The position numbers and the translations under genes are program-made. Below are positions 1,280 to 64,000 of a stretch of DNA of 64,000 bases, one piece after another. Position 1 is the stretch's first letter; every line of letters starts with the position of its first letter. The DNA lies in the NCBI GenBank assembly GCA_032718475.1, contig JAUCBJ010007524.1, positions 124,001 to 188,000 on the forward strand, given 5' to 3'. This DNA is from Nemertoderma westbladi. Lineage: Eukaryota > Animalia > Xenacoelomorpha. The notes below the pieces were generated by a model that worked only from the letters and a program-made list of their open reading frames with translations, searched no databases and was not told where the DNA came from.

Positions 1280-3164
1280 TGTTACGAAATATGGCGCTGT
1301 GTACCAATATTAGCCGTTATACAGTATAATCATTTAGATAAGCCATAATGACGCGCAATTATATTTAGATAAGGAAACTAAAATGCCCATATTTGTGAAT
1401 TTTATCCATTTTGTACAGTATGTAGTCCTACCTATGTAATTTTGTAATTAAATATAAACAAATAGTTCTACAGTAGCAAGTTTCCTATAAAATCCTTTGA
1501 TGTAAGCTTGCTGTTATTAGTATCAATAGGATTAACTGTATATTTGCTTTAATTTCTATTATATTTGCGCTAAATTAGATTTTATGTACCGTGCTTTAAG
1601 TACCGCTAAAATAAGCAACGCCAATATTACCATATATATGGTGGTAATTTGTGATTCTGAGGGGGAATAGGTTCACAATCCGGCTTCCTTATTGGCCTAG
1701 CTGCTTCCAGGTTGGTCTAATGGTATCGCAGATTGGGGAACCAATCAGAGGATTATTGCATCATCCTCGATGAATCACATATAAATTGGCTGTATTTCCG
1801 GTATGTGCGATCCATAATCTCATTCTCACTGTGTTTCTTAATCAATCTCGATGGTTACTGCAAATTAGAATCCGAACTATGATTTCTACCCTTTTTATTA
1901 ATGGTTCTATGTGATTAAGATGCGATAATCCCACGGGATTTTCTTTAGACTGTCAGACTGTTTGTGATTGCATGCGCCGTTACGGTAGCTATTCATTCTA
2001 ATGGCGGGCTAAGGTACCGGTAGGCGCGGCGGGCGCACCGAGGGGTAGCGACGAAGGGAGTGCAGAGGATTCAAAAGCGAGCAACGCTGGCGGGGGGGTC
2101 ACCATTGTGGTCGGAAGGCTAGCAGTGTAGAGAGAAGACCGGTCGCCGGTACAGTAATTAGGGGGCTAACGATCCAGATTTTGTCTCTATTTTGTAGTGT
2201 TAGGGGGGCGGGAATTGGGTTAGTTAGGAAGCCTATATGTACCCGGGAGAGGCCTTCGTGTTCTACACTGCAAACTGTACATTGAGAACTGCTAACTGTT
2301 AAGTATTGGCTATTGATTGTTACGCTGATTTGTGTATTGCTAAAGTGTGCCTGATTAAATTATGAATGCTTAGTTAGATAGGCGCCTTTTTCCCTTGATT
2401 GATTTCTATTTCTTAGTTTACGATAAATAATTACTGATTAGGCCAAAATAATACGGTATTTAGGCTGTGCGTAATAAATTAGAATTGCGCATTCTGGAAC
2501 ACTTAGTAATTAGTACGCTGTTTCATATTTGTGACTGCAATTAATTAGTAAAATTAAGAATTTGTACGCAGCATAGCGGAGAGTAGTTACGGTAATTATT
2601 TGGAGTACTGTAAACTATTCACGGTATTCATGGGCGGTTATTTGAAAATACCAGACAATAAGCTAGATAGCAGTATCCAGTACGCAGTAGTAGGTTGCTG
2701 GCCTAAAGCCAGCCGAAGGCAAGTTTAGACCCATAGCACCAGTCCCGGTAGGACATTCTGTCACTTTGAGTTATTTTAAACATTCTCACATTCATATATT
2801 CCGTTAGGGAACCCCAGTATTTGCAATTAGAAAGGACGCGTTTATTTGCGCGTTTTTAAACAGTAAGATTATGTGATAATAATACACTCTGAGTGTAAGC
2901 CTCTGACACTCGTTTTAAGTAGCCTAGGGAGCCGTCTCGGGTTTATTGTTTTGGTTATTCCCGCGTGGCTCATAGATTCGAAAAGTTAGCTCTCTATCGA
3001 GCGATCGGTAGAGAAAGGAACAAGCAATTTGCAGGAGCAGTATAAAATTAGTAAAATATATTAGCGGACGGCAGGTTAGCGCCATCCAGCGGCGAGTAGC
3101 GGTTTTGTGTTTAGCAGTAGTGCAGTAGTAGTAATAACGCGCTCCTGATCGCCCCTGTTTAACA
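1280..3164 (+). repeat. 5' LTR of BEL copy A (~1.9 kb; 3' boundary inferred)
   Basis: Starts TGTTACGAAATATGGCGCTG like the copy B LTRs; ends TTTAACA (TGTTA/TAACA termini); part is repeated at 21414-21790. Confidence 0.7.
1731..1790 (+). promoter_or_regulatory. Putative LTR Pol II promoter (paired CCAAT boxes and TATA box)
   Basis: GATTGGGGAACCAATC followed by TATAAATTGGC; conserved at 48670-48730 and 63376-63435, where TTCAGT (Inr-like) lies ~28 nt downstream. Confidence 0.5.
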
Positions 3165-3242
3165 GTAGAACACGTGATATTTGCTGTTGCTTGCAACAGT
3201 AAAGAGTGTATTCACTATAGTCGCAATACAGTAGTACATTAG

Positions 3243-12834: not shown

Positions 12835-13372
12835 TGTTAGCTTATTCAATCCCGCCAACACCCCATAAAGTTATTAGCCGATAAGCAATATTGGGAGCCA
12901 CGAGATTGGGTAATTAACCAACTCGTGCCATCCCAATGAGAGTGGGAAGGAAGCACACAATAGAGGGTCAGGGGCCAAACCCCTAACCCAAGGAGAACAG
13001 GTGGAGTGAACGGGAATACTCCACGGGGCGCCAACAAGGGTATTAACCAATCAGAGGGGGGAATGGCATCGATTGAGTAGCAGTAAGGCCACCGTGCAAT
13101 ATAACCAATAACCTATTGATCAGTGATTCAGTTATCTCAGTGCAGCAGTGCTAGCGTAGGGTACAGCCAATTAGTTTAGTTAGGGGATCACGGGACTTTA
13201 GTTACCGTATCCCGCCTACCGTATAATTCACAATATATCTATATCCTATAACCTATTATTATACACCGAACTTCAGAACTCAATTATCTTTATTTCACTC
13301 TTATACACGGCGGGGACGCGTGGACTAAATACCACATCGGATAAATCGGGATCCCTCCTGGATCCCGTCACA
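12835..13372 (+). repeat. 5' LTR of the nested element
   Basis: TGTTAGC...GTCACA, direct repeat of 19596-20133. Confidence 0.95.
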
Positions 13373-13488
13373 GTAACTAAAACGGTGTTGCTTCCCCAGC
13401 TAAACTCAGTAACTAAAGACGAGCTGCCGCCCCAGTTAAACACAAAGAACTCCACCCTAGCTAGCCGAACCATCAGCCACCAGACGAG

Positions 13489-16400
13489 ATGAGTGAGTCG
13501 GGCGAGACACCGCCGCGGACCCCGGACGACGATCTAACGATCCGTGAGGCCACGGCGAGACGATACGAACCCACGATGCCAGTCGATGCTACGCCGACCA
13601 CGTCGACGCCGGTTGACGCCACGTCGATAACGAGCAACCTGGCGAACCAAGATGTGGGGGGTCGTCTACCAGGAGAGAGCGAGTCGAGTAGAGGAGGAGA
13701 ACGAAAAGACGAGTCGACGCGGAGCGAGGGTCGACATACCGATGTCACCGGTCAGCCACAGGCCGAGGACGACGAACGGTCCACCGGAACGGCGACGGTG
13801 GGGCCGTCGGTACGACGTCGGACCCGGAGAGAGAGAGGAGAGGTCGGCGACGAGGACGTCGGGGTTTCTGATCGACTTCGACGGGCCTACAACGCGACCC
13901 GGGAACTACTAAAGGAGGCCAAGGAGGGGGCGAAGATAGACGAGGTGAGACTGAGAAAGCGACTAGGTGAGTCGAACAGATACTTTGATCACCTAGTGTG
14001 TTCTGGACAGAGAGAACTAGCAGAGTTGAGGGCGAGAGGAGTTGTCAACGAACTGGTTGAACTATGGGAATGTAGGGGTATGCAGCCTAGTGTAGTGTAC
14101 ATAGGGCCATACTTAGTCGATGCCCGGGGAGTAAAATTAGTGGGTTGGAAGAGACCGCAGGAGGGCGAATCCGAGGTTAACTCCGAGGATTCGGTCTCGT
14201 CGGTCGGAGGAAGTTCCGGGAGGCGGGGGAGAGTTAGTAGGACAGAGGGGGGGCGGGAGTCCGTCGCAACCGATAAGTCTGCTACATCCTCCGCAAAAGA
14301 AAGAAGGGTGCGGGAGATAAATCTGGCGTATGATTTAGAAAGGGCGGCGGCAAAGCAGAAAAGCTTAGAGCGGCAACTGAGGGATAAAACCGCCGTCTTA
14401 AAGGTGTTAAGAGAGTTAGAGTTAAGAGAGTATAGAAAGAGAGTCGAGGAGTGTAAGAGAGTCGAGGAGTGTATAGAGCGGAAGATGAGAGTAGGAGACG
14501 AGCCGGCGACGTGGCCTGAGATAATTGCGAGAGTTGAGTCGGGCGAGCAGAATATGCGAAAGAGAAAGATAGAGGGTAAGCATGAGCGGGATGATTTGCG
14601 TGCCCGGCTAGGGAGGCTTGCGCAATATCAAGCCAAACTAGGCCAGCGCCGACTAGAACTGGCGCGGTTGGAGATATCAGAGAGTGAGCCCCCACCTACA
14701 GACACCGGGCGAGAGAACCAGAACTGGTGTAGCCGTACGGGCGGGGGGGGGTAGTAGTAGTACGTCAGAAGTAGTTAATATTAATAGTACCGTAGTAAAT
14801 AACCCTAATCCCTTTATTACAGGAAATAATATTTTACCGGGTAGTAGTAATTTAAATTTAAATACAAATATTCTAAATAATAATTTCAATTCAAACCCGC
14901 AAAATAATTCGGATAATAATTTAAGTCTAGAGAATAGTAGTGATCTAAGTAATTTAAATAATTTAAATAATAATCCTGTTTCAAATTCTAATAATTTAAT
15001 TGATTTAACAAATAATATTGGGAATGGTGCTATTAATGTGAGCGTGTCGGACGTACATAACTCAGCAGACGGTGGCCTGGTAGGCCACGTAGTTAGTAGG
15101 CAGGAGGTGGCAGGGTTGAGCCAACCCGGCGGCGGCCTGGTAGGCCACGCAGTTAGTAGACAGGAGGTAGCGGGGTTGAGCCAACCCGAAGTAGGCCTGG
15201 TGGGCCACGCAGTAGTAGAGAGAGAGGCGGGGGTGAACAGACCCAGCCGTAGTAGAGACAGCGCGTCGACTAGAGAGGGGTATAGAGACGAAGTAAGAGA
15301 TATTGAAGTTATATGTGGCGAGTGGGGGGGGGGGGGGCTACCGGCGCCCCACCACATAAGATTAGTGGCGAGAGAGGGGGGGCAGAGAATGCCCCACAAG
15401 AGGGGTGTAGAAGTGTAGTAAGAGGTAGTGAAGTTAGAAGTGGCGGGTGGGGGGGGGCTACGGGCACCCCACCGCGAGAAGTTAGTAGAGAGAGAGGGGG
15501 GGCAGAGAGTGTCCCGCAGACGTCAGCGGATAATGCGCGGGCCGAATCAGGTAAACCGCAACACCCGGCGACGGAGAGTAATAGGGGGATTGCGAGTATC
15601 CCCAGCGGCGTGCGATCGAGTAGAGAGAGGCAGGTTGACGTCGCGAGAGGGCAGGCGAAGCGTCGAGCCCGACCAGAAGAGAGAAGAAGAACAGTGGAGT
15701 TTAACCGGGAGGTCGACGAGAGATCTCACGAGCCGGAATACTGCACTGAAAAGAGACGAAGAGGAGATAGTAGAAAAGGTGTCGCCACGAATGATAGGAG
15801 TGCGAGGACGGATAACGAACCGTCGATAGTAGAGATGGAGTCAGGGAGCCAGTGGGGTCGAACTTCGGGAGATTGCCGTCGCCCCGGAGAAACGCACCGC
15901 ACGCCAAGAGAGGGGTACAAGACGTACCAATACAGAGTCGAGAACAGGAGAGGGGATCGGAGAGAAGCTTCCCGACGTGATATAGCTGCCGATCGAGAGT
16001 ACGGTAGTCGCGGGGAGATACAAGATTCGCGAAGAATAAACTTCGGTTCGGAAGGGCATATGCAGACTGCAGGACATACTGTAGGCCTTACTGCACATAC
16101 TATTGTAGGCCATGCTGAGAGAGATAGAGTAGGCGATGGGGTAGCGCGAACGATGGGATTAAACCCGGAAGTCGCGGAGTACATACCGGTAGGTAGGCGA
16201 GAGGTAGGTAGGCCTGTATCGGTACAGCAGCATGACTATAATAATACACAGGGACATAACATATATTCAGGGGAGGGGGGAGTTATTGGAGATAGACGTA
16301 TGGGCCCCAATGTATTAACATCAACCCCAGTACCAAACATACCGGCTGGGGGGGGACAGGGTGACATTCCCCCATCACAATATCGACAATGTACCCCGAT

Positions 16401-17214
16401 AGGAGCAAGAACATCGAACTCCCTGGACGAGAGCAGGTCGTGCGGACAGTCAATACCACACGCGGCCGTACAGGGGACTGCTAGTCCACAGTTAGCTGGT
16501 AGCAGGGCCACACCGTGGCAGGGACAGAAAGAAAATAACACCAAAAATAAAAACAATCCCAATATACCCAGTAGGCCGAGTCTAGACAACCAAGACATTA
16601 AATCGGTACATATAAACCTAAGCGCGATACGTGAAGGACTATACAGGAAACGCTATAATCCAGGATTCCAATGTCAATTACATCGGGACGGAACCCATAA
16701 GACCAGGAGTTGCAAGTACTGGCAAGCGTTGCCCAAACGAGATCGTGTAGCCTACACAGACGCAAACGGACTATGTCATCGATGTGTGGTAAAAGGACAC
16801 AGATCCGGAGAGTGTTGGAAAGGGAGAGGATGTGAAAGGACTAGACCAGGGGCAGAGAAGCCCATGAGCAAACATAAGGGAGTCGGGAAAGTAGAAGGAG
16901 GCGTGTTGCATACACACGCAGGACGGACACAGTGCGAGGGGGCATTACATGAGCAGACACCGCGTATACCGAGGGTCGAGCGGGGGTCGTCGAGGGCTCT
17001 AATGCCAGCGCACATACGAAGGGGGAGGCCAGCAAAGGTGGCACCGAAGAGAGTGTGGCGAAGAGTTAGAGGACGTATAGGAGGGCAGCAGGAGAGTGCC
17101 TACTGGAAGAAGGGGCACCTGAGAGTTTTTAGTCGTCCAAAGTTTTGGACTGAGGGGGGTGGGAATGAGGGCGAGACGCCCTTCCCACGCACAAAATATA
17201 AAATAATTATTTAA
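13489..17214 (+). CDS. Gag-like protein of ~1240 aa (coiled coil, Asn-rich and other disordered regions, BEL-type zinc knuckles), split into 3 ORFs by frameshifts at poly-G runs
   Basis: ORFs 13489-14754, 14684-15418 and 15313-17214 switch frame at G-runs (~14744, ~15324); CQLHRDGTHKTRSC...CHRCVVKGHRSGEC has the same spacing as host CQYC...HKLDSC...CWACLAPGHVRRQC. Confidence 0.7.
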
Positions 17215-17239
17215 TTAAATAATATAATTAAATAATAAA

Positions 17240-18960
17240 GTAGGTAGAAGTTAGGTAGTTAGGAGTTATTTAGGAGGTACGTAGTACCTAGAGTCAGAGT
17301 TAGTTAGTTAGTCAGTTAGCACTGATAGTTAGTGTTAGAGTAAGAGTTAGAGGGTACGCAGTACCGTTAGTAAGAGTAGAGTCAGAGGAGTTAGTAGGAG
17401 GGTACGTGTAGTACCGTTAGTAGAAGAGTTAGTAGGAGGGTACGTGTAGTACCGTTAGTAGAAGAGTTAGTAGGAGGGTACGTGTAGTACTGTTAGTAGA
17501 AGAGTTAGTAGGAGGGTACGTGTAGTACCGTTAGTAGAAGAGAGTTAGAGGGTACGTAAGTACCGCTAGTTAGTAGAGTTGGAGGGTACGTAAGTACCGC
17601 TAGTTAGTTAGAGTTAGAGGGTACGTAAGTACCGCTAGTTAGTTAGAGTTAGAGGGTACGTAAGTACCGCTAGTTAGTTAGAGAGTTAGAGGGTACGTAA
17701 GTACCGCTAGTTAGTTAGAGTTAGAGGGTACGTAAGTACCGGTTAGAGAGTAAGAGTTAGAGGGTACGCAGTACCGTTAGAGAGTAGGAGTAGTAAGAGG
17801 GTACCTTGTACCGCTAGCTAGTAGAGAGAGCTAGAGTAGTAAGAGGGTACGTAGTACCGCTAGTTAGGAGTGTTAGTAGTAGCAGTAGAAGGGTTGTGGG
17901 CACCGGAAGCGCCACGCAGTTAGAGTTAGTAGGGAATGCGCTGAACTTAATGGGGCACGGGCGTGATGACGTGTTTGATGTAAGAGCAAGGTATGTTAAT
18001 TAGGGTGGGTGCCGGGCACAAGAGGTGCCGGGCACAAAAAGAGTAGAGTAGTAGACGGGCACATAGGGTTGCCAGGTAGTAGAGTTAGAGAGTTAGAGAT
18101 AGAGTAGAGTAGTAGAGAAGGCACATAGGGTGCCAGGTAGTAGAGTTAGAGAGATAGAGATAGTGTAGAGTAGTAGAGAGGGCACATAGGGTGCCAGTTA
18201 GTAGAGTTAGAAGGTGCCGGGCACAAGAGGTGCCGGGCACAAAAAGAGTTAGTAGAGTTAGAAGAGAGTTAGTAGAGTCAGTAGTAGTTCACATAATTAA
18301 CGTACCCACTCTGCCGGCACTCAGAGCGTCACGTGTAGGCGATGAGACGTAAAGGGGGAGTAGAGGAGTAGAGACGGGCACATTGGGTGCCAGGTAGTAG
18401 AAGAGTAAAGAGGGCACATAGGGTGCCAGGTAGTAGAGTTAGAGAGGTAGTAGTGTAGTAGAGAGGGCACATAAGGTGCCAGGTAGTAGAGTTAGAGAGG
18501 TAGTAGTGTAGTAGAGAGGGCACATAGGGTGCCAGGCAGTAGAGTTAGAGAGGTAGTAGTGTAGTAGAGAGGGCACATAGGGTGCCAGGTAGTAGAGTAG
18601 AGCAGAGAGGGCACATAGGGTGCCATATAGTAGAGTGGTTGTGGGCACCGCAAGCGCCACGTAGTTAGAAGAGTGGAGTAGAGTTAGTAGAGCTAGTTAG
18701 TAGAGTTAGCAGAGCTAGTGGAGTAGAGTTAGCAGAGCTAGTGGAGTAGAGTTAGTAGAGCTAGTTAGCAGAGTTGGTAGACTCAGAGGAGTCAAGTAGA
18801 GTCAGTAGAAGTAGAGAGCTAGTAGGAGTTAGTTAGACTTAGTAGAGAGTTAAAGTTAGTAGAAAGTTAGAGGCTCTCAGTTAGAGCTAGAAGTAGTAAG
18901 AGTTAGTAGTTAGCAGAGTTAGTTAGATAGTTAGAGTTAGTAAGCAGTAGGTAGATAGTA
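17240..18960 (+). repeat. C-poor, purine-rich tandem arrays (35-38-bp and ~53-bp units), each unit carrying a short hairpin
   Basis: Units such as AGAGTTAGAGGGTACGTAAGTACCGCTAGTT and AGAGGGCACATAGGGTGCCAGGTAGTAGAGTT. Confidence 0.9.
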
Positions 18961-19595
18961 TGATAGCACAGGGGTAGCATTAGAGAATGAAGCCTTAGGG
19001 AGTGGAGTGACAGAGAGTGGAGAGGTGATAGTGCGGAGTGCGGAGAGAGTGGTGTAAGTACTATAGTCATACAACCTTTCTCAATTAGCTACTGGGACTG
19101 GGGGACAATTGACTATGGGACTATGGACGAGACAACTGACAATTTCACGCTTCTTGAGTGCGACGGCACGAGAGGGGGGGGAGGTTCGTCAGGAGAGATA
19201 AAACAGTCAAAGTGGAGTTGAGAATCGGAATAAGAGTGTGAAGTGCGGAGAGAGTGCGAACGCAATTCTAGTGTGGGGGGGGGGGGAGAATAAGAGGCTG
19301 AGTGAGGGACGAGGAGGTCCGGGGGTATGAGGGAGTTAGGGTGAGAGTAGAGGGGAGGTAGGGCGAAAGTGTTGGGGAAACAAAAATCGCGTGAAGAGGT
19401 GAGCGCGATCGGCCCGACATGAGACGCCAGGCACACAGGGTAGCGTTATCATACCCATAGGGGGCGGCCTGGAAAGCCGGCTCCTAGAGAAAAGAATTCC
19501 ACCCCACACCCGATACTAGATCGGGATCCAGCGGGATTGTAACGCACTTTTTGGTTGATGCTATCTTCTTACCGGGAAGATAGCATGGGGGGGAG

Positions 19596-20133
19596 TGTTA
19601 GCTTATTCAATCCCGCCAACACCCCATAAAGTTATTAGCCGATAAGCAATATTGGGAGCCACGAGATTGGGTAATTAACCAACTCGTGCCATCCCAATGA
19701 GAGTGGGAAGGAAGCACACAATAGAGGGTCAGGGGCCAAACCCCTAACCCAAGGAGAACAGGTGGAGTGAACGGGAATACTCCACGGGGCGCCAACAAGG
19801 GTATTAACCAATCAGAGGGGGGAATGGCATCGATTGAGTAGCAGTAAGGCCACCGTGCAATATAACCAATAACCTATTGATCAGTGATTCAGTTATCTCA
19901 GTGCAGCAGTGCTAGCGTAGGGTACAGCCAATTAGTTTAGTTAGGGGATCACGGGACTTTAGTTACCGTATCCCGCCTACCGTATAATTCACAATATATC
20001 TATATCCTATAACCTATTATTATACACCGAACTTCAGAACTCAATTATCTTTATTTCACTCTTATACACGGCGGGGACGCGTGGACTAAATACCACATCG
20101 GATAAATCGGGATCCCTCCTGGATCCCGTCACA
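19596..20133 (+). repeat. 3' LTR of the nested element
   Basis: Direct repeat of 12835-13372, preceded by a PPT and followed by TSD GAATC. Confidence 0.95.
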
Positions 20134-32380: not shown

Positions 32381-32750
32381 ACTGATACTGGTACTGATAC
32401 TGGTACTGATACTGGTACTGATACTGGTACTGATACTGGTACTGATACTGGTACTGATACTGGTACTGATACTGGTACTGATAGTGGTACTGATACTGGT
32501 ACTGATACTGGTACTGATACTGGTACTGATACTGGTACTGATACTGGTACTGATACTGGTACTGATACTGGTACTGATACTGGTACTGATACTGGTACTG
32601 ATACTGGTACTGATACTGGTACTGATACTGGTACTGATACTGGTACTGATACTGGTACTGATACTGGTACTGATACTGGTACTGATACTGGTACTGGTAC
32701 TGATACTGGTACTGATACTGGTACTGATACTGGTACTGATACTGGTACTG
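32381..32750. repeat. 12-bp minisatellite (ACTGATACTGGT)n, ~31 copies
   Basis: Near-perfect tandem array. Confidence 0.97.
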
Positions 32751-33101
32751 TATGTACGTGTAGATTTAAGAAAAATCTCGAGGAAGACATAAATATTATT
32801 ATTCAAACGAGTTAAGTAAAGAGGTAGGAATTCATTAAATCTCGCTCTTCTCTTTACTTATTAGCTTAAATAATAATAATAATGTTAAATTATAGTTTAT
32901 AAAATAAATTCATACTTTAGATGTTCAAAAAGGGGTATATGTATATAAGTAAACAAAAAGTTAGTAAAACCGAAATTTCAAGGCAATGGTACTTGGAAAT
33001 TTAATATTGTCCACTACAATAGTTTGAATTATTCCTTCGCATGGAATCCAATGACAGATTCATCTTTCTACCTGTAGTGTTGCAACAGGTTCATAAGTTA
33101 T

Positions 33102-47239: not shown

Positions 47240-48144
47240 CTGAAAAAACATATGATAAATTGTGTTTTTAATAATTTAGTTGAGATATCAACGTTTTAAA
47301 TCTGCTTAAGGCTATTTTATAATTGTTTAACATTCTGGAATATTTTATTTATTTCAGGAGTAGCTATACAATTGATATAAAACATTTTTATCAGGGTAGA
47401 TTCCTCAAGGAAAAAATAAAATATTCCAAATTTTTTTGTCTTTAATTATTATCATTGAATAATTAAAAGGCTTTTGTGGTAGATATAAATGTCCAAATAT
47501 CCCGATATCCAAATACCATTGTCTAAATGTAGTACAATTATTGGAATCCTTCTATATAGATAGCGCCTCAAAAGCGCTGTATATTTCAAATCATCTGAAT
47601 AGTATGATTACACATTAGATACTGACAGGTACAGAGTACTGAAAAAACCAGATACATATAATACAGAAACTTACAAATCATTGGAAAGAAGAAACAACAC
47701 AATACAGAAACCAACAATAAAATATTAAATCCTATTCGTATTAACCAAAACATACAATGAATTAACTGAAATATAAATTATATATATATTTTTCATCACA
47801 TTGTGTCATTGAATGTTATATAGAAATGAAACTGAGGTCACCAAAGATTCAGGAAGCTGACAGCCCATTAAATCAAAAAGCACGACATACTGAATCAAAC
47901 GAACAAAACTTAAAAATGCCAAGGCATATTTGGAGACAGCAATTTAAAGATAACTATATCGACAGCCTAAAAAGCGTCGAAGCTCAATCGGGTTTTTATG
48001 ATGCTATGGATTGCATTTTTGGTGACAAAGATATTGATAAATCGGTAAATATTTTTAATTCAACATTATTAGGAGTAACTAATGATTATTTTTCTTCAAA
48101 AAAAGAGTCGTTTAACACTGAGAAAAGGCAAAACGTAAACACTC

Positions 48145-50390
48145 TGTTACGGTATATGGCGCTGTACCTACATTATGTAATATATTAGTCCGTTATACTG
48201 TACATATATTAGTCCATCATACAGTATAATATATTAGTTCATTATATAGTATCATATATTAGTCCGTGATGCAGTATAATTATTTAGATAAGGCATAACG
48301 CGCAATGACATTTAGATAAGGAAATTGAAACGCCCATATATTTTGAACTCATCCATTTTGTATAGTATGTAGCCCTACCTATGTAATTTTGTAATAGGAT
48401 ATAAGTAGATAGTTCCAGGGTAGCAAGTCCTTGTTGGACCCTGGATATGGGCTTGCCGTTATTAGCCTTGATGGGGCTAGCTACTGGTTTTAATTTCTCT
48501 ATAATTGCGCTAAATTAATATTTGTGCATGGTATTATTAGTACCGCCAAATTAAGCATCGGGAAAATTACCTTTTATGGTGACAATTTGCGATTCCAGGG
48601 AGTAATAGGTTCACAATCCGGCTCTCTTATTGGCCTAACTGCTTCCAGGTTGGTCTAATGATAGCTCGGATTGGGGAGCCAATGAGAGATCGATTGCATC
48701 ACCCTTCTCAAATCACCTATAAATTGGCGTTTTGCCGGCACACCTTCAGTACATGTCACCTTCACCTTATTCCCTTATCACTGTTCAACTATTATTCGAT
48801 GCTTAGTTTTTCTGTGTAAATTACTGCCCTTTTGATTTTCTTGCAATGATTCGCTAATTTGCAATTTCTATTGATTCTTGTTTGTGTTTCTCAATCAATC
48901 CCAACGATTACTGTTAATTACAAATTGGAACTATGATTTCTACCCTTTAGTAAATGGTTCTATGTGATTCCTTTCGACACAATAATCCTACGGGATTTCT
49001 TAGACTGTCAGACTTTGTGATTTGCATGTGCCGCTACGGTAGCTATTCATTCTGATGGAGGGCTAGGGTACCGGTAAGCGCGGCGGGCGCATTGGGGGGT
49101 TAGCGACGACGGGAGTGCGGAGGATTCAAAGATAAGCATCATTGGGGGGATTACTATTGCGTGTGCAAGTTTGCAGCGTAGAGTGGGTCAGGTACGCCGG
49201 TTCAGTAATTAGGGGCTGATGATCCAGATTTTGTCTCTATTTTGTAGTATTAGGGGGACAGGAATCGGGTTAGTTAGGAAGCCTAGATGTAACCGGGAGA
49301 TATCTGCGTGCTTTATGTTGCGAGTTGCGAATTGTGAGCTAAACTGTAGACTATGTCGCAAGCTACGTGCGAACTGTAAGTTGCGAGTTGCGAGTTGCGA
49401 TTGCTATCTGACTGCTGATTGTGAATTGTGCGTTAAGAACTAAATTGGTAAGTATAAACTATAGATTGTTACTCTGATTGGTGTGTTACTAAAGTGTGCC
49501 TAATAAATCACGAATGCTTGGATAGGCGCTCTTTTCCCTTTGATTGATTTCTATTTCTTAGTTTACTGTAATTAATTACTGATTAGGTCGAAAATAATAC
49601 GGTATTTTAGGCTGTTGCTAGTGTAACCCGTTGCGTAATAATTTAGAATTACGCACTCTGGAATACTTAGTAATTAGTACGCCGTTACATATTTGTGACT
49701 GTAATTAATTAGTAAAATTAAGAATTTGTACGCTGCATAGCGGAGGGTAGTTAAGGTAATAATTTAGAGTACCGTACACTATTCACGCTAGGCGGTTATT
49801 TGAATTAGCGGACAAAATTCACATCATAGTATACAGTATACAGCGCGCATCAGTAAATTGCTGGTCTAAAGCCAGCCGCAGATAAGTTTGAGTCCCGAAA
49901 TAAACGCTGCATCAAATTTTGATTATTTTAAATATTCTCACATTCACACATTCCGTTAGGGAACCCCAGTATTGCGATTAGATGCGATTAGATGCGATTA
50001 GAAAGGACGTAGTTGTAAACGCATTTTACAGTAAAATTAGGCTATAAGAATACACTCTGAGTGTCAAATCTCTCACACTCGTTTTAAGTCAGCTTAGGGA
50101 GCCGATTCGGGTTTATTGTTTTGGTTATTCCCGCGTGGCTTATATATTCGAATAGTTAGCTCTCTATTGAGTAATCAGTAGAGAAAGGAACGAGAATTTA
50201 GCAGGAGCTGTAGAAAATTAGGAAATATATTAGCGGACGGCAGATTAGCGCCATCCAACGGTAAGTAGCGGTTTTGTATTTAGCAGCCCTACATCAGCAA
50301 CAAAGCAACAATACGCTCCTGATTGCCCTGTCTAGTAAATAGAGCAGTTTTGTGTCTTTATTGGTTAGGCTGGGTAGTTTGTTCGTAACA
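48145..50390 (+). repeat. 5' LTR of BEL copy B (~2.25 kb; 3' boundary inferred)
   Basis: TGTTACG...CGTAACA 7-bp terminal inverted repeat; the first ~1150 bp are repeated at 62847-64000. Confidence 0.75.
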
Positions 50391-51519
50391 GTAAAGCACG
50401 TTTTGTTTTGCTGTACTGCGTACAGTAAATACGAATTAGATTACTGTATTAGGTACTGTACTGTGTACAGTAAGACAGAGTATTCTTAGGCTGTTAAATT
50501 AGATTACTGTATTCACTGGTCGCGTACAATAGTACAGTAGTATATTAGGCTGATTGCTGTTACTGCGTACAGTAGAAAAGACATTTGTTTTGCTGTACCA
50601 CACACAGTATTCATTAGGCTGTTAGGTTGGTGTACTGTTTTACTTACTGTATTGCGTACAGTGGATATACAGTAGTGCGTTTACTAATCGCAAATACAGC
50701 GGTTCCTTAGGCCGTTAGGGCAGGCCGTAATTAGTATGTTTTTTGAAAATTTTTAGCTAGGTTTGTGAGAATTCAGTTTTGGTCAAAATTATTTGTAATA
50801 AAATCTAGAGTTTTGTACCGGTATGTTAGATAACCGCTTAGTTATTTTATACCATCTGGAGATACATGGCAAGACGGAGCTTCTGAGTTTGGGGTTCGTG
50901 TGGGTCTGCGGGTTCGGTTTGCAATCAGCGAAAAGACTGAAACTTTGGACGCGGACGTGGAATCTCACAGCAAACAAGGTTAGTTGTTCTGTTGGCACCA
51001 TTGTGTTTGTGGAAGCAGTAAAAAATTATCGGTTGTTTAACTGCGAAGGTGAACTCAATTTATTAGTTAGGATAGTTAGGTTTAGCCGACCATGGGTTTT
51101 TGAATCGCTCGAGTTAGAGAGAGAGAGAGAGTCGCAACCCGAAGATGTAGCCACGCGCTAGTGGATACATATAATATTTGAAATTAAAATTGCGTTGATT
51201 AGAGTTATATATGTAAATTTAGAAATATTCGGGTGGCAAGTTTATTTTGAATATTTTGTATTAGATTCAAAAAATTATTTGAGTCATACCAGTATTTAAA
51301 TACTATATAATAACTATAGAATAATATTTTGTTTAAATATTGTACTGGTATTTGCTAAAATTAGATCCTATTAAATTCACAATATTGCCTTGCGAATTTA
51401 TTTTGACATTTTGGACAATTAGATATTTGACAAATAATTTAATCGTATTTCGATTAAATTATATATATATCTCGATCTTTGCGAGATATTTTTGCCGGAA
51501 GGCAAATATTATTTAGACT

Positions 51520-54500
51520 ATGAGTGTCTCAGAGAAGGAGGCACTAGAGGACAGCTATGAGATGGCGGCTGGACCGCCGACTGACGATAGCGTTAATATT
51601 ACTGTTGACGACAATGCCGACTATGACGACGCAGCGAGTGACGCTGATGTAAGTGAACAGGAGGATGAGACAGTAACTAGTGAGGAAGAACAACAACCTC
51701 AAGTAATAGTATTAGGATCCCCTACCGCTACTGTAAGGAAGGATTGTACGGCAACCCGACCAGAGGTGAGTGATAGGGAGGGTAGTGTAGCAGAAGCGAG
51801 AGCCCGGAGCCCGGTTTCCAGACCTGTGGGTATGGTAAGTGCCGTGGTCCCAGCGGCTAAAAGGAGTACCTGTAGTTCCCGAAATAATCCTTCAAGTCCA
51901 CCAAGTGTGAGTCAGGTAAGCGAAAGAGAACTAGACATCGCGATAAAGAAGAAACTTCGCGCGCATGCCGGACATATAACTCGGACGGCGGACAAGGTAA
52001 GGAAGATGTTAGCCGACTCAGCGAACATCGGAAGGGAAGGGTTAGTAGTGATTAGAAAAGGATACAACTCAGCGTTATTCAAGCAGACGGAGGAGCTTGC
52101 AGTCCTGGCAAAGAAGGCAGTAGAGTCTCAGTCGAGCGACGTGGCGACGAGGATTTACGACAGGGTTTTAGCAGCCTTGTTGGAGCACCGCGCATTATCG
52201 GAGCGATTTTGACGAGTTAGGACGGAGAACTGGCTGCTATGGGCATCACAAGAGCAGGCGACTCAGGTGAGTGACGTAGAGTCGAGAGATTTAGTGGAGC
52301 GAGAAGAAACGCAGGATAAGGAGGAGCACCGTTATCAGCGGGAAGTTACCAGCTAGCTGATGCAGAGTGGTGTGGTGGTACCGGGCCAGGTGCTACCAAC
52401 AACGGACAACATCCAACAGAGGACGTTAACTCCACCCGACGACGCATCTAGAGACAGTGGCGATTCCCAGGTTAGTCACGCGCGAGGTAAAGTTATATGT
52501 GCTAGATCCCTTGTTTCTCACAACTCGGCAGAGGAGAGAAGACGCCGACTGGACGAACAGCAGGCGGAAGTTTTGCGTGCATCGGAAGCACGGAAGGAAG
52601 CCGAGCGGGAACGAGAGCGCACACGGAAGTTGGACGCGGAGCTACGAGAGTTGGAGGACATAAGTAAGCGCGAACGAGTGGAACGCGAGCAAAAAGAGCT
52701 CGAGCTTCAAGCCGAACGCGAGCGCAAGGAACTCGAGCGGGAACAGAAGGAACGCGAGCTTCAACTCGAACGCAAGCGCAAGGAACGCGAACTCGAGATC
52801 GAGAAAAGGAGATGCACGTTGTATGAAGAGAAGGCGCGAGTGGAAGAAGAGAGCGCAGCGAGACGAGCGAGGGAAGAAGAAGAACGTAAACTGGCGCAGT
52901 TGGAAAGTGCGAGATTGAAAGAGCGAAGAACGGACAAGAAAGGCGAATGAAATCGCCGAGAAGGGGATGCGAATGATCGAAGAATGTGGGGCGAGTGTAG
53001 GGACTGAGTTGCGAGAACTGTTCGCACTGCAGAAGGCCGAACAGGAAGCGAAAACTCCGACCATACGCGAGTCGACGACGACCAGAATTCCTATACCCGG
53101 TCCAGCTATTACGAGTACACGGATCGCTAAACCGTTCTCTACATATCGCACACCAGTCGGTATTAGTGCTTCACCTATCACGCAGAATCCAGCGCATCAT
53201 CGCACCGCACCACTATACACCGAACGAGACAACGAAGAGTTTAGAGGAGAAACTCCGATGGGCCGAGTATTGAGCGAACCGAACCCGCGGGTTTGGAATA
53301 CGCGGACGGAGCGCCAACCCAGTTCGACGGAGAACTTCCGGGTTAAACCGGAAGAGGGATCATATGAGAGACAGCAGATTACTCAGATAGAGCCGACTAC
53401 ACAACAGAACCTTAGCCAGGAATTTATTACGAGGGATGAGTTGAGTGCTAGTTTAGCGCAAGCTATATCGCCGCACATCCAACCTATAACGGACATGCTT
53501 AGCAACCTACGGTTAAAGGAAGCAGCCCAGGTAAGAAGTAATTCAAATCCTAGCAGGCCTGAGTTAGATAAAGTCCAACCTAGTCAACGAGTACGCATAT
53601 CGGAGGAAACTATACCACATAGACCTCAGGTAAGAACGCCTGTCCCGACTATCCATAATCCCGATTTCGAAAATTCAGCCGAAAGGTTTATTCAGGACGC
53701 TTGGATCAGGGCCTCGGCGCGCAAACCATCGCGAGCGCTAAGGACTGACACCAAATCAAGTGATGAAGAGGAAGACATGAGACGTCAGAAGTCCCGAAAC
53801 TATAAGGAAGGAAGGATGGATGCGGAGCAGGTAAGTTTGAACCACCGGGAAAGGACCAGACTTAACAACCCTGCGGAACTAAACCATTTGTTAACCCGGA
53901 ACGACGCAACCCTTAGGGACATAGGTAAGTTTGCTGCTAGGCAAGGACTGCCGACGCAACAACCCCAGAAGTTTATGGGTAACCACAAGCACTGGAGGAC
54001 TTTCAAAACCTATGTTGACGAGCAGCTGACCAACAGCACCTTTACTCCCAACGAGAAGTTCAACTACTTGCTTCAAATGCTCCATCGAGAACCTAGAGCC
54101 ATTGCTGACAACTTCGTCGGCAATGAGAGAGCATTCGAGTTAGCAATGAAGACGCTTAGCGACATCTACGGGAATAAAACCAAGATGGCACAGTCGATAG
54201 TGGAAGACTTGGGTAAAGGCAGAAAGATTACAACTCCGCTAGAGCTGTTGAACCTAACAAACGCTATTTCGAATGCATTGGACATCTTGAGGACGGTGAA
54301 TCTACCTCATCATGGTGATCACGCCGAAGTTTTAAAGAGCGTAATAAGACGTTTAAACATGCGTTATTGACAGAAATGGCGCAAATTAGAGAATAAGTTG
54401 GAGGGTCAAGGTAAGGTGTTGACACTTCAGCATATTCATGACATGATAGCCACAGACGCAGTAGCAGAGATGAAATCAAACTTCTCAGAAGAGAATATGA

Positions 54501-57500
54501 GAGAGTCTAAACCTGTTACCGATAAGTCTATGGTAAGTTTTGACGATGACAGGACCACTGTGACATTTAGCTCAGTAGACAGATATAATTCGAGTACCCC
54601 AGCCTTTAGATCAGACTCGCGAGTATGGTCAGGTGAGCGGTTAGATAGACCTAGGTTAAAGCAACAGGAGTTGCCGGATGGATTTGTAGGTTGCCAATAC
54701 TGTTTACTAAAGGAGGTAAGATCTGACGACCATAAGTTAGATAGTTGCAGACGGTTCAAAGAATTAACTTCGGAACAGAGAAGAGTTCAAGTGCGGACGT
54801 TGGACACCTGTTGGGCATGTCTTGCGCCAGGTCATGTACGGCGGCAGTGTCCGAACAGCAAGGACGGATGCATGGAATGCGGCAGACTACATCACAAGTT
54901 GCTACATGCGGATTTCCACACCCCAACGGACCGTTACTTACAGCGAAATCCTCACAGGAAGGGGAGCAAAGAACCCGTATCGACAAGGAGAAATATGTTC
55001 ACCGGCATTCATGACGACGGTTATCAACCAGGTTCGTCGGACGAGGATGGCGAGTCGAGCGCGAGAGAGGTGACCTGCCAAGGTTTCACCGCGGATAGTT
55101 CATCGACCAGCGCGCGGACGTATTCATCATCGGCAACGTCGGAAATATTTAGCGTGATTCCGGTGAAACTTACTGGAGATAAGGGATCGAAGCGAATATA
55201 TGTGATGTTGGACACTGCGTCCACATTATCGTATATCGACGAGGAAGTGACGAGAGCCGTTTCTAGCTTCCAGGACGCCGGGGAGATACAAATAGAGTTG
55301 AAGTCTATGCACGGGGTAGGAGACCTCAAGGGACACAGAATTTCGGTAGAACTAGACTCCCTACTTCCGAGAGACCAGCATACTCGACAAGAACGAAGAG
55401 CTTTGCCATTGGACAGATTTAAGTGTCTAGCTATGAAGGGATTCGGCAGGCAGTTAGGTAAGGTGCCACCGATGAGTCCCATAGCACAGGAGTATTTTGA
55501 CAAACTCAGAATACCCAGACACCAGGTAGGTTATAGGAATGTTTCTATGTTGATTGGTGCAGAACAGCTGATCGCACACCAAATATGGGAAACGAGACCA
55601 GCTGAGCCGCATGTCAATGGACCACATGCCCATAGGACTATACTAGGTCGGTATACAAGAGTACCCATGTCTTATGAGTTTACAGGTGGCGACAAGCCAA
55701 TAGACAGATACGACGAATTACAGCCTATAACTGAACCACCGTTAGTAGAACCACCAGACATAGACGAGTTTAGGAGAACCTGTATTGACCACTATAGTGA
55801 CTTTAGCGAGTCGGACGAGGAGTTGATTCCCGATAATGTTAGGTTGTCGGAACCACTTCATAACGACCAGACAGATAGTGAACCCGAGGACTACTGTTAT
55901 CAGACCCATGGGTCTGGTTCAGCGGCCCACGCTACCTATTTGAGTAACGTTTTGACTTATACCGACATAGTGGAGGGTCAATTGGCTAAATATCGAGACC
56001 TCGACATTTTCCAATACAGTGAGGAGGAATTACAGAAGGAATTGATACGCCAGGACCTCGAGACAGGAGCCAGAACCGTCGAATGGCTGGATAGGGATGC
56101 AATGGAACCCGGTGGATATGACCTAGCCATGTCCACTGACGAGAAACGGTCGCTGGAGATGATGGAAGACACCATACGTCTGCTACCGACAGGACATTTT
56201 GAAGTTGGAATGTTGTGGCGTCGACAACCTCCTAAGTTGGAGAACAACTACAGCTTAGCCTTGAAAAGATTGAACGGAGTAAGGGCTCGGTTGTTGAAGA
56301 ATCCAGACGTTAGGGAGAAGTATTGCGCCCAGATCAACAACTATTTTGCCAAGGGATTTGCTGGGAAGGTAGAGGACCCTGACTTAGTGACAGACCAGAC
56401 TTATTACCTCCCACACCTCACCATTACCTCACCCTGACAAGCCTGACAAAGTCCGAGTAGTCAACGACTGCGCAGCAGTCTATAGAGGTATGTCCCTGAA
56501 TTCAGAGTTGATGGACGGACCCAACCTGATTAACTATTTGATAGGAATACTGTTGCGTTTTAGACAGCGGCGATTCGCATTTACTTGTGACATCGAGGCG
56601 ATGTTCCACCAGGTAAGAGCCTGTAAGGCAGACCAGGATAGCCTTCGATTTCTCTGGTACGAGAATGAAGACTTATCCGGCCCAGTGGTTACATACCAAA
56701 TGTACGTTAGGATATTTGGTGCCCGCGATAGTCCGAATGGCACGCTGTTTGTTTTAAAGAAAACGGCAACAGCCCAGATTGGTAAGTATCCAGTAGAAGT
56801 GATCGAGTCCATCTTGAGAAACTTCTATATGGACGACGGATTGGTGTCCAAGGACACAGCGGAGCAAGCTATAGAAGTAGCTCACGGCCTGCAGGAGTGC
56901 TTGGCTACAGGGGTTTTTCCTCTGACCAAGTTCACTACCAACTCGGAGGCCCTATTAGAGTCGTTCCCGGTAAAGGATCGCGGGAGTGGAGACATAGAAT
57001 TGGGGGTAGAACCCATCCCCATGGCGCGAGTAAGGGACTCGCTTGGAACCCGAACACGGATAAATTCCAGGTAAGAGTTAGGTTTGAGTCCAGTAGCCCA
57101 GACAAAGTTTTGACAAAGAGAATTTGCTTATCGACTTTAAGTAGACTATTTGACCCGATAAACTTTATCAGTCCAGTAATATTACAGGCACGAGCGTGCA
57201 TGAGGAAAATTTGGTTGTCCGACTTAGAGTGGGACGAACCAATATCTCCTATACATGCGAAGCAGTGGAGAGAGTGGGAAGCCGAGTTGCATCTATTGAA
57301 AAATATAGATGTACCCCGTTCCTACTTTCCGAATCAGCTGGTATTCCCAGCTGATCTCGAACTCCACTTATTCAGTGACGCAAGTGACACCGGATTTGGT
57401 ATGGTAGCCTACCTTCACCGAGAAGTGAGTCAGGATAAATTTGAGATGGCTTTTGTGACTTCTAGATCAAAGACAATGCCGGTCAAATACATGACTGTCC

Positions 57501-59784
57501 CTCGTGCAGAGTTACAGGCGGCTGTAGTTTCAGTCGAGGTAAGTAAGCGGATAACAGAGGAGTTAGACACGACATTGACCTTATTCTATTGGACGGACGC
57601 ATCCTTAGTGTTAGTATACATTGCGGCCGACAATATTGCACTAAAGACATTTGTGGCCAACAGACGCGCTCAGATCGTTGACTTTTCGACGAAGGAACAA
57701 TGGAGACATTGTCCGGGAGTGTTAAACCCGGCCGACATAACTTCGAGAGGTGCAATGCCGGCGGAATTCTGTCAGGAAGAGTCGCAGGAGTTTTGGTTGC
57801 ATGGACCTGATTTTCTAACGAGGACACAGGAACATTGGCCAGAGCGACTGAAGATAGTGACCAATCCGATGCCTGAAGATGCAGAAGTCAAAGTGGAGAA
57901 AGTCTCTAAGTCAAAGTCTAAAGCCAAACTCAAGTCATTGGAGCGGCCTGAAGAGTCATTGGAGCGGCCTGAAGAGTCATTAGAGCGGCCCGGAGACCTG
58001 TCAGACCAACAGACTTACGTGACTACTAGGTCCGGAAGGGTAAGTTATGACGTAAAACCACCCTTACAGACTAAACCAGAGTCACAATTGGTAAGTGACG
58101 GACAGAAAATGACCGACACAATGGAGCCTTTGGTTTGGATTCGAAACTTCCATTAGCTAGCGGGCAACCGTCGCTGGCATTAGAGCCATGTAGTATTTAT
58201 GACAAATTACTAAATTCGTCTGCCTCTTGGCTGACAATTTGTAAAAGAACTGCGTGGTTAAGCTGATACATTTCGTACCTTTGTTTAAAACATTCGAAAC
58301 ATTTGGGAGAACAATTGAGCACTAATAGTGAGCGAATTCAGAAATTGAAACAACCTCTGACAGAGGATGAGATTGATCAAGCGGAATTAAGGCATTTGAA
58401 GCATTATCAAATGTGTGCCTTCCCGAAAGAATTCCATCGATTATCGGTTCAACGATCAGTTCTCTATAAACCCCTTAGAAAATGGAGTCCATTAATCCAT
58501 AAGGGTTTGATTTGTCATAGATCGAGAATCCAGACTGTCGACATAAACTCACAGTTTAGGTTCCCAGTGATAATCCCTAGTCACCCAATAGAATTGCAAA
58601 GAGCGATTCTATGGGATATACACAAGAGGTTGCATCACGCGGGAAAGTTACACTGTTTGTCGGCAGCGAGACAGCGATTCATTCTATTGCAGCCAAGCAG
58701 GGCAGTAGGCACTATGTACGACGCCTGTCTGGTTTGCAAGAGGGTGAACGCCAGAGTATTAGAACAGGTGATGGCTGAACTCCCGGAAGCGAGAGTGCAG
58801 GCATATGACCCACCCTTTACGAACACAGGGGTGGATTGTTTTGGTCCGATTGAGGCAAAGAGTGGACGGCTGACCCACAAGCGATGGGGCCTGCTACTGA
58901 CATGCATGGCTAGTAGAGCCATACATAATGAGCGTGTGGCAGACATGTCGACCAAATCTCTGCTCCTGGCCTTAAAGAGATTTATGGCCAGGAGAGGACT
59001 AGTAAAGGCGTTCTACTCCGATAAGGGTACAAACTTTGTCGGGGAGAATAGCGAGTTGAACGCGGCTCACAAAGCAGCACAGAATAAAGAAATTTCTGCA
59101 GCACTTTTGCCGCAAAGAATAGAGTGGAGATTTAATACTCCAGAAAGTCCTTGGAGAGGAGGAAGTTGGGAGCGTTTAGTTCGCTCTGTAAAGCAGGCCA
59201 TTGCTAAGACGTTGCCTGTAAATAAACAACTTACCGATGACAAACTGGTCACAGCTTTCATCGAAATCGAGCATACACTGAACTCGAGGCCGATAGCTAT
59301 GTTGCCAGACGGTGTTGCATTAACGCCGAATCATTTGCTAATGCAGAGTCCAGCATTTCTTGTGCCGGCATCAGAACCCATTAGTGCCGACCTATATAGT
59401 CGTAAAAGCTGGAAGGTGACACAATTAGTAGCATACACATTCTGGGAATATTGGCGGGAATACTATCTTCCCACCATATCTACCAGAACAAAGTGGTACA
59501 AAACGGTTCGGAGTCTCCAAAGGGGAGATTACGTATTGATAACCGAGCCGATTGTCAAGAGAAAATATTGGGAGACGGGAGTTATCTTGCACATACACCC
59601 AGACGTGCAAAACATAGTGCGCACAGTCACTGTGAAAATTAGGTGCAAGTGTCCGCACCCGAAGAAGTGTAAAACTAATGGTTTACACACCTTGGACCGA
59701 CCAGTCCAAGATATTGTGTTATTAGAAGAGACACGCATCGAGACAGGAGATTATAATTTGTCTCCTGCCTCAAACAAAAATTAG
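51520..59784 (+). pseudogene. BEL/Pao gag-pol polyprotein (DUF1759-like Gag, 3 zinc knuckles, aspartic protease, RT, RNase H, integrase), interrupted by stops and frameshifts
   Basis: PQKFMGN..W..F; CxxC knuckles ~54690-54910; MLDTASTLSYI; YYLPH, DIEAMF, FYMDD; LHLFSDAS, PRAELQAA, WTDA, NPADITSRG; HHCC; VDCFGP, SDKGTNF, GGSWERLV; FW.YW.EYYL. Confidence 0.93.
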
Positions 59785-62715: not shown

Positions 62716-62846
62716 AGAATTATTATACAGTAGTTTCAAGTTATTTAGATTATTTGAAAGAGATTTATTTTGTTTTGTATACATCGCCTTACACTCTTCT
62801 ACAATTGGAGGGAAACATTGCTTGATTTCCCTTGGCCTTGGAGCGG

Positions 62847-64000
62847 TGTTACGGTATATGGCGCTGTACCTACATTATGTAATATATTAGTCCGTTATAC
62901 TGTACATATATTAGTCCATCATACAGTATAATATATTAGTTCATTATATATATAGTATCATATATTAGTCCGTGATGCAGTATAATTATTTAGATAAGGC
63001 ATAACGCGCAATGACATTTAGATAAGGAAATTGAAACGCCCATATATTTTGAACTCATCCATTTTGTATAGTATGTAGCCCTACCTATGTAATTTTGTAA
63101 TAGGATATAAGTAGATAGTTCCAGGGTAGCAAGTCCTTGTTGGACCCTGGATATGGGCTTGCCGTTATTAGCCTTGATGGGTCTAGCTACTGGTTTTAAT
63201 TTCTCTATAATTGCGCTAAATTAATATTTGTGCATGGTATTATTAGTACCGCCAAATTAAGCATCGGGAAAATTACCTTTTATGGTGACAATTTGCGATT
63301 CCAGGGAGCAATAGGTTCACAATCCGGCTCTCTTATTGGCCTAACTGCTTCCAGGTTGGTCTAATGATAGCTCGGATTGGGGAGCCAATGAGAGATCGAT
63401 TGCATCACCCTTCTCAAATCACCTATAAATTGGCGTTTTGCCGGCACACCTTCAGTACATGTCACCTTCACCTTATTCCCTTATCACTGTTCAACTATTA
63501 TTCGATGCTTAGTTTTTCTGTGTAAATTACTGCCCTTTTGATTTTCTTGCAATGATGCGCTAATTTGCAATTTCTATTGATTCTTGTTTGTGTTTCTCAA
63601 TCAATCCCAACGATTACTGTTAATTACAAATTGGATCTATGATTTCTACCCTTTAGTAAATGGCTCTATGTGATTCCTTTCGACACAATAATCCTACGGG
63701 AATTCTTAGACTGTCAGACTTTGTGATTTGCATGTGCCGCTACGGTAGCTATTCATTCTGATGGAGGGCTAGGGTACCGGTAAGCGCGGCGGGCGCATTG
63801 GGGGGTTAGCGACGACGGGAGTGCGGAGGATTCAAAGACAAGCAACATTGGGGGGATTACTATTGCGTGTGCAAGTTTGCAGCGTAGAGTGGGTCAGGTA
63901 CGCCGGTTCAGTAATTAGGGGCTGATGATCCAGATTTTGTCTCTATTTTGTAGTATTAGGGGGACAGGAATCGGGTTAGTTAGGAAGCCTAGATGTAACC
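62847..64000 (+). repeat. 3' LTR of BEL copy B (truncated by window end)
   Basis: Direct repeat of 48145-49294, starting TGTTACGGTATATGGCGC. Confidence 0.95.

Follow-up and report, generated by a model that had tools for sequence, protein, structure and literature searches.

Retrotransposons of the BEL/Pao superfamily are described in the Belpaoviridae profile of the International Committee on Taxonomy of Viruses as primed by a host transfer RNA (tRNA), with an 18-nucleotide (nt) primer-binding site (PBS) for tRNA-Arg or tRNA-Gly; the profile puts long terminal repeats (LTRs) at 0.2-1.2 kb and genome size at 4.2-10 kb, and calls their replication poorly understood (PMC8742986). A precedent for priming by the element's own RNA is Tf1, where RNase H cleaves at the primer (accessible sections of PMC7175516) and where PBS DNA is present on cDNA ends (excerpt of PMC11042837). 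A criterion for predicting such self-priming, given in the consulted part of PMC6317226, is that the 5' LTR has at least 10 base pairs (bp) of complementarity to a stretch that begins 0-5 bp past its end. Here we describe a BEL/Pao family, present as two copies (A and B) in 64,000 nt of the Nemertoderma westbladi genome (contig JAUCBJ010007524.1, positions 124,001 to 188,000; the window), whose sequence suggests that it may prime reverse transcription with its own RNA. No report of self-priming in BEL/Pao was found in the literature searched, most subscription papers and Repbase reports lying outside it, and a term search of the available portions of PMC3118150 and PMC554778 returned no mention of a PBS or of tRNA.

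The copies were recognized by self-comparison of the window together with Pfam. Their Gag and Pol carry DUF1759, Peptidase_A17 and DUF5641, with Integrase_H2C2 below its cut-off and weak matches to RVT_1 and zf-CCHC; homologues carry the same Pfam families. The Pao-type domains follow the order protease, reverse transcriptase (RT), RNase H, integrase, and the LTRs have inverted ends and a 5-bp target site duplication (TSD). Neither copy has an 18-nt PBS for tRNA-Arg or tRNA-Gly, and with LTRs of 2246 and 1885 bp in an element of ~17 kb the family is a size outlier among BEL/Pao. On the sequence of its Pol domains we class the family as BEL/Pao, the missing tRNA PBS being its departure.

Results

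In both copies the ten bases after the 5' LTR are complementary to a ten-base segment inside that LTR (Table 1), at the sites given in the initial annotation. Copy B forms nine Watson-Crick pairs and a G-U pair at the 3' end of the segment, and an extra G-U pair between 49306 and 50401 extends the duplex to 11 pairs; copy A pairs at all ten positions. The annotation had also described two compensatory changes and one wobble between the copies, and these are present: B and A have, respectively, C-G and T-A at pair 5, T-A and C-G at pair 7, and T.G and C-G at pair 10. The 3' end of the LTR segment thereby faces the first base after the LTR (offset 0) in both copies, as had been claimed, through the wobble in the case of B. 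MAFFT set A 3165 opposite B ~50341, and a gapless register joining A3160 to B50386 matches at 18/25 positions, against 6-10/25 in four other registers. We take this register to be right because of that match and because the hairpin downstream of the PBS, retained in A at 3180-3203 with altered letters, aligns too; the annotated homology of the copy A sites is thus upheld. Swapping the partners between copies weakens the duplex by 5-8 kcal/mol, the cognate pairs having -12.1 and -13.7 kcal/mol and the swapped pairs -5.5 and -7.3 kcal/mol. The complementarity between the LTR segment and the PBS is confirmed as genuine.

The window alone cannot fix the LTR end, because the 3' LTR of B runs off it and that of A is reduced to fragments. 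Public contigs were aligned to the region, from 4 of 7 listed runs in a first pass and from 2 runs in a second; run X2 possibly has the same source as the window, and is used as an extension of the sequence and not as an independent sample. A 2170-nt X2 contig matches 50345-50390 with 0 differences and then passes into unrelated DNA starting CACTC, the 5-mer at 48140-48144, which fixes both the LTR end and the TSD where the initial annotation had placed and predicted them. Two X1 contigs likewise depart at 50390 (agreement 0.65), and contig depth drops from the LTR to the leader in bins between 50280 and 50475 that are too coarse to place the end. The LTR end of copy A at 3164 is supported only indirectly, by alignment and by three X2 contigs whose LTR-like stretch ends in the last letters of A. 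There is no TGG within 125 nt after the B LTR or within 200 nt after the A LTR, in agreement with the annotated absence of a tRNA-type PBS. Among the contigs aligned (82 and 36) no substitution was seen in 50391-50400. Further PBS variants probably exist, because contigs in which the 10-mer does not fit, and which align only from 50401-50403 onward, supply about half of the depth at 50401-50424; the primer block has an additional variant in 11 X1 contigs.

Long, repetitive LTRs might offer such a match by chance. Stems of 10 bp with at most one G-U pair are indeed common here (36 in B 48145-50800, 16 in A 1280-3260), and 41/1000 10-mers of the B leader have a partner in the LTR. Shuffled LTRs held a partner for the post-LTR 10-mer in 15/1000 cases for B and 3/1000 for A, and a score permitting more G-U pairs was equalled in 13/500 and 6/500 shuffles, respectively. 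Within the real LTRs of A and B the next-best complement is only 7 nt long, and the best complement sits at offset 0 in A, in B and in a further element of the window, N.

Element N lies inside copy A and is young, with two identical LTRs. Its BEL-like Gag Cys-His region matches that of B weakly (E=0.01), no pol was detected in it, and its LTR could not be aligned to the A and B LTRs beyond short words. By its sequence N is a third family in the window, unrelated to A and B, with the same self-pairing PBS design. Its pairing at offset 0 was reached in 1/1000 shuffles (6/1000 over offsets 0-3), and a long fold contains the duplex with probabilities of ~0.6-0.7 for 8/9 pairs. The complementarity in A and B is of the length given by the published criterion (PMC6317226, as consulted), and that in N is 9 bp. 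A TATA-like TATAAC at 13100 precedes the initiator (Inr)-like TCAGTT at 13128 by 28 nt. N also contains long purine-rich tandem repeats at ~17250-18960.

We gathered relatives with an integrase alignment of 22 sequences, at 29-39% identity. The set comprises 108 loci: 1 viral, 80 from metagenomes (the best 80 of 562) and 27 from a genome collection. An exact DNA scan of metagenomes gave 0 matches, and scans of viral contigs yielded 0 and 1 loci. The search for direct repeats covered those of L001-L081 that measure 4 kb or more and 24 of the 27 genome-collection loci, and two LTR copies fixed the LTR end in 14 of the 108; the others, being short, collapsed or with an LTR start only, were left uncounted. 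Inverted repeats alone gave LTR ends at 8 loci and no usable case. An 11-bp match in L032 was dropped, since it came from a false LTR end inside gag. No tRNA gene was found in the window or in 50 loci, and no tRNA-like gene in the LTR; a search of the LTR for ribozymes was negative, and one sub-threshold microRNA-family match falls on the leader hairpins.

Eight of the 14 loci have TGG within 7 nt of the LTR end (seven families, L104 and L107 being near-copies), and none of these pairs with its own LTR, their best contiguous matches being equalled by 33-178 of 200 shuffles that reran the same search as the real sequences. In each of the six relatives lacking TGG the post-LTR bases pair with the element's own LTR, contiguously in two and across a GT-AG junction in four. 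The contiguous cases are L023, with 11/11 (0/200 shuffles), and L043, with 11/11 at offset 3 (1/200) in old LTRs that are 74% identical. Across the junction, pairing extends over 10 nt in L038, 12 nt at offset 3 in L044 and 14 nt in L093 (each 0/200), and over 11 nt in L094 (1/100). Counting A, B, N and the six relatives, offset 0 is found in 7/9 self-pairing cases, and 8/9 primer segments end in 3' AC. For A and B themselves a primer assembled at a splice junction was rejected: the contiguous match outscores every GT[AG]AG junction. In L023 (1-326 vs 6695-7104) the segment is contiguous in the 3' LTR, and in the 5' copy an acceptor-like site precedes the segment end by five bases; this is a hint, from a contig that may be chimeric, that intron loss can give rise to contiguous primers.

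Three side observations concern these loci. The L023 family possibly holds both intron-bearing and intron-less forms. The LTRs of L093 (5183-5887 and 11384-12088) end in TA...AA, not TG...CA, and have a clean 5-bp target duplication. L082-L108 place BEL/Pao sequences in 27 contigs of a collection of bacterial and archaeal genomes; host DNA that was binned together with that of symbionts is the probable origin.

A chance origin does not sit well with the homologous placement at offset 0 in A and B, with the independent case in N, or with the split of 6/6 against 0/8 among relatives. It draws on the abundance of stems, on the partners of leader 10-mers and on the L032 match, and we consider it largely excluded and very improbable. 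With the LTR end and TSD as predicted, no adjoining tRNA PBS, and pairing that recurs in N and in the non-TGG relatives, the annotated proposal of self-priming gains support from sequence comparison.

The primer segment probably lies inside the repeat (R) region of the LTR, because a TATA box upstream and a poly(A) signal downstream occupy homologous sites in A and B. The TATA box is ~590 nt upstream of the segment in B and ~480 nt upstream in A (at 1780 by alignment), CCAAT boxes precede it in both, and the Inr-like motif of B follows it by 28 nt; the remaining TATA-like hexamers of the two LTRs are not at homologous sites. N, L023 and L044 have the same order at shorter distances, and a TATA-like box lies 97-590 nt upstream of the segment in 5/9 self-pairing LTRs (B, A, N, L023, L044). 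The segment is upstream of AWTAAA in all six LTRs with such a downstream motif (B, A, L023, L038, L044, L093), which fits self-priming because strand transfer requires that order. A primer end coinciding with the poly(A) site was rejected, since 186 nt (B) and 88 nt (A) separate the segment from the signal downstream of it. Of the putative intron in R, the donor was found by motif scan and the acceptor scored under the scan cut-off. A second donor/acceptor pair in B (49448-49561) would span the poly(A) signal; its acceptor is kept in A (2416), its donor is not.

Just 5' of the segment is a block, TTAGTTAGG...CGGGA, common to A, B and N; the + strand of the window has 10 occurrences of the 9-mer TTAGTTAGG, of which 7 fall within A, B or N LTRs. 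This block could be a promoter, in which case transcription would start at 49306-49307 and the 10-11 nt of the segment would be the capped 5' end of the RNA, as in Tf1. Such an arrangement would account for the common 5' limit of the duplex in A and B, for the abrupt divergence that follows 40 nt of near-identity (37/40), for the TATATGTA that copy A carries ~24 nt upstream, and for the 11 nt, counting wobbles, in B, which is the Tf1 length (accessible sections of PMC7175516). Yet B reads TAGATGTA where A has TATATGTA, and the homologous TATA and CCAAT boxes, with the Inr-like motif of B, are hundreds of nucleotides further upstream. A splice-acceptor-like sequence recognized by eye 60 nt upstream implies transcription there, and the shared motif is not at a fixed distance from the segment, B and N showing a difference of 16 nt. 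We regard a start at the segment as unlikely and favor a primer internal to R.

In favor of self-priming, long folds of B predict the duplex with probabilities of 0.9-1.0 for 9 pairs. The pairing could also be structural or regulatory, a long-range RNA switch over the PBS, with priming by half of a host tRNA, by a different small RNA or from a site deeper in the leader. Hairpins follow one another along the leader, with PBS-like repeats among them (at 4550 in A, 9/10; at 13409 in N), 50385-50394 has an alternative partner at 50554-50563, and tRNA halves prime some copia lineages (PMC6317226, consulted part), the half-tRNA-primed copia elements being Osser, Bryco and Bianca, with a PBS complementary to a tRNA that is cut in its anticodon arm. 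On this explanation, however, the nine distinct post-LTR sequences would need nine host RNAs, yet the match is to the element's own LTR every time, with offset 0 in 7/9; and relatives with TGG, whose PBS would equally need regulation, show no such pairing (0/8). We therefore hold a purely regulatory role to be improbable, and self-priming to be the better account of the pairing. The 7 nt after the segment in B can extend the helix toward the LTR end, and this extension was rejected as a family feature, since A and N are without it.

Several observations weigh against the reading of an R-internal primer. The duplex is short, at 9-10 bp, and spans 170-1070 nt. That of copy A is absent from ~1-kb folds (probability at most 0.01; forcing it costs 8.3 kcal/mol), and the 3'-terminal wobble pair of B has a probability of 0.31 (0.24 at 20 C), the best fold pairing 49316 with 50390. 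CpG decay was ruled out as the source of this wobble: the observed/expected CpG ratio of the window is 0.94, with no depletion. Both PBS changes lie opposite primer changes with P = 3/45 = 0.07, the covariation comes from two copies only, and 10-bp stems are common, so the two copies are suggestive and not conclusive. Of flanking duplexes like those of Tf1, B has one, A has scattered stems only and N has none. The transcription start near 48748 is predicted from motifs only, and 4/9 self-pairing LTRs have no TATAWA upstream of the segment (none in L038 and L043; only downstream of the donor in L093 and L094). Finally, in trees built without an outgroup a supported branch (100/99) sets the six self-pairing relatives apart, with the window family on a long branch outside; the family falls beside TGG rows in a 40-row integrase tree and beside self-pairing rows (45/71) in a 14-row tree of RT, RNase H and integrase. 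Because the window family is outside their well-supported clade, these relatives are only analogues, of uncertain kinship to it.

Table 1. Coordinates of features in the window and of junction-spanning pairings in relative loci
Feature	Sequence	Positions	Strand	Remarks
TSD CACTC, left copy, copy B	window	48140..48144	+	same 5-mer after LTR end in X2 contig
5' LTR, copy B	window	48145..50390	+	2246 bp; inverted ends TGTTACG...CGTAACA
TATA box 48718 and Inr-like TCAGTA 48746	window	48718..48751	+	CCAAT boxes upstream; predicted start ~48748
Putative intron in R	window	49074..49247	+	donor GTAAG, branch-point-like CTGAT/CTAAC, pyrimidine tract, TAG; by eye
Conserved block TTAGTTAGG...CGGGA	window	49270..49298	+	just 5' of primer segment; 37/40 identical A vs B
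Self-primer candidate, copy B	window	49307..49316	+	
B-specific extension	window	49317..49323	+	can pair with 50383-50389 at the end of the unique 5' (U5) region; within 7-mer repeat
Poly(A) signal AATAAA	window	49502..49507	+	T-rich tract after; ATTAAA at A homologous site 2354
PBS, copy B (candidate)	window	50391..50400	+	adjoins LTR, no TGG
10-bp hairpin just 3' of PBS	window	50407..50429	+	first unit of repetitive leader
gag-pol (BEL/Pao), copy B	window	51517..59784	+	several broken frames; DUF1759, zinc knuckle, RT, Peptidase_A17, integrase, DUF5641
Purine-rich short tract before 3' LTR, copy B	window	62840..62846	+	
3' LTR, copy B	window	62847..64000	+	99% identical to 5' LTR; window ends 13 nt before primer segment
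5' LTR, copy A	window	1280..3164	+	1885 bp; ~78-81% identical to B in alignable blocks
Self-primer candidate, copy A	window	2257..2266	+	
PBS, copy A (candidate)	window	3165..3174	+	perfect 10-bp partner
Element N, inside copy A	window	12835..20133	+	identical 538-bp LTRs 12835-13372, 19596-20133; TSD GAATC
Self-primer candidate, element N	window	13197..13205	+	~67 nt after Inr-like TCAGTT 13128
PBS, element N (candidate)	window	13373..13381	+	adjoins LTR, no TGG, 9/9 pairs
Perfect PBS pairing (10-14 nt) only across LTR GT-AG junction	L038	1851-2241		
Perfect PBS pairing (10-14 nt) only across LTR GT-AG junction	L044	2079-2772		
Perfect PBS pairing (10-14 nt) only across LTR GT-AG junction	L093	5183-5887		
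Perfect PBS pairing (10-14 nt) only across LTR GT-AG junction	L094	7265-8311		

The two LTRs of copy B differ by 8 substitutions and one 4-nt indel over ~1150 nt. Copy A has several insertions, among them one of ~1.3 kb in the leader (~3243-4515), 70 nt after the PBS. The leaders (50391-50720, 4520-4640 and 13373-13430) consist of degenerate repeats of hairpin and PBS-like units, and their length varies among copies. Between pol and the 3' LTR there is a reading frame (60560-61600 in B, 20689-21474 in A) that is ~87% identical between the copies; it has no Pfam family, and Atlas matches to it were only below 0.85 (FAR1/WRKY-GCM1-like leads). The end of this frame in A, an LTR fragment and a truncated minus-strand long interspersed nuclear element (LINE) are included in a tandem duplication of ~4.25 kb at 21152-29731 (97% identical), and the start of the unique 3' region of the copy A LTR is missing at its joint, 21414. 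More minus-strand LINE-type RT fragments are at 8853-9836 and 30060-31061, one of them within the gag-pol of copy A. A near-perfect 12-bp tandem array of ~40 units lies at 32283-32810.

Discussion

Self-priming in some form appears likely to us for this family. With more moderate confidence, we propose from the sequence that it primes its minus strand with its own RNA through the ten-base segment internal to R that is complementary to the bases after the 5' LTR. Transcription would start near 48748, placing the segment ~560 nt into the RNA (~385 nt without the putative intron) and ~190 nt before the poly(A) signal. The segment would anneal to the PBS. By analogy with Tf1, the RNA would be cut immediately after 49316, the RNase H of Pol being the most likely nuclease, and the new 3'-OH would face the first base beyond the LTR. 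RT would then copy U5 and the rest of R (~200 nt), giving homology for strand transfer. The 5' R would be the simplest donor, with the 3' R or another RNA molecule as alternatives. Retroviral plus-strand synthesis is known to copy the primer; here it would copy the primer into the new PBS and pass primer changes to it, which would explain the rapid joint turnover of the two 10-mers. B and N would need Pol in trans, because the pol of B is broken and N is without one.

A broader proposal seems to us evenly balanced between right and wrong: that BEL/Pao elements have a tRNA-independent mode of priming, which may have evolved repeatedly, in which the primer comes from the middle of R and its cut is marked by an upstream motif and a 3' AC, not by a Tf1-like fold. 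Primer and PBS would change in step, serving as a family-specific password that a gag-only passenger uses too, and in many relatives splicing would put the primer together. If this is correct, self-priming would occur in a third LTR superfamily, with an internal primer and in a form unlike that of Tf1. Such elements would be freed from the tRNA supply and from silencing by tRNA fragments, and PBS-based annotation would miss or misplace a large BEL clade.

The closest described systems are Tf1, Tf2 and Tj1 among the Tf1/sushi chromoviruses, which, like the family described here, have no tRNA PBS and carry an LTR segment of ~10 nt that complements the post-LTR bases (available portions of PMC7175516, PMC4600332 and PMC10085805). 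The likeness to Tf1 noted in the initial annotation holds for this complementarity; it appears not to extend to the position of the segment, and it does not extend to the fold. The Tf1 primer is the first 11 nt of the RNA, whereas the window segment appears to lie hundreds of nucleotides inside R, ~1 kb from the PBS, and the three-duplex 'pretzel' of Tf1 (as presented in the consulted part of PMC10085805) is not conserved here, no flanking duplex being shared across B, A and N. RNase H cleavage is demonstrated for Tf1 and is proposed for the window family by analogy. The Tf1/sushi elements have a Ty3/gypsy chromovirus Pol, and the window family, with a BEL/Pao Pol, is not a member. By the same criterion of complementarity, self-priming has been predicted in the Ty1/copia TAR lineage (Houba, Osr-1) and in plant Tcn1 (PMC6317226, in the part consulted), which are plant copia and gypsy elements and not BEL/Pao. 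With the Belpaoviridae the family shares the Gag-Pol domains and their order, TG...CA LTRs and a purine tract before the 3' LTR, and it differs from them in lacking a tRNA PBS, in its LTRs of 1.9-2.2 kb and in its element length. The BEL-type element Cer7 of C. elegans is said to encode its own tRNA-like primer, a report that our literature search did not confirm; if so, the likeness would be confined to an element-encoded primer, since the window family has no tRNA-like gene and finds its partner in the LTR. In a superfamily for which we found no description of self-priming, the family is best read as carrying a variant of a known mechanism.

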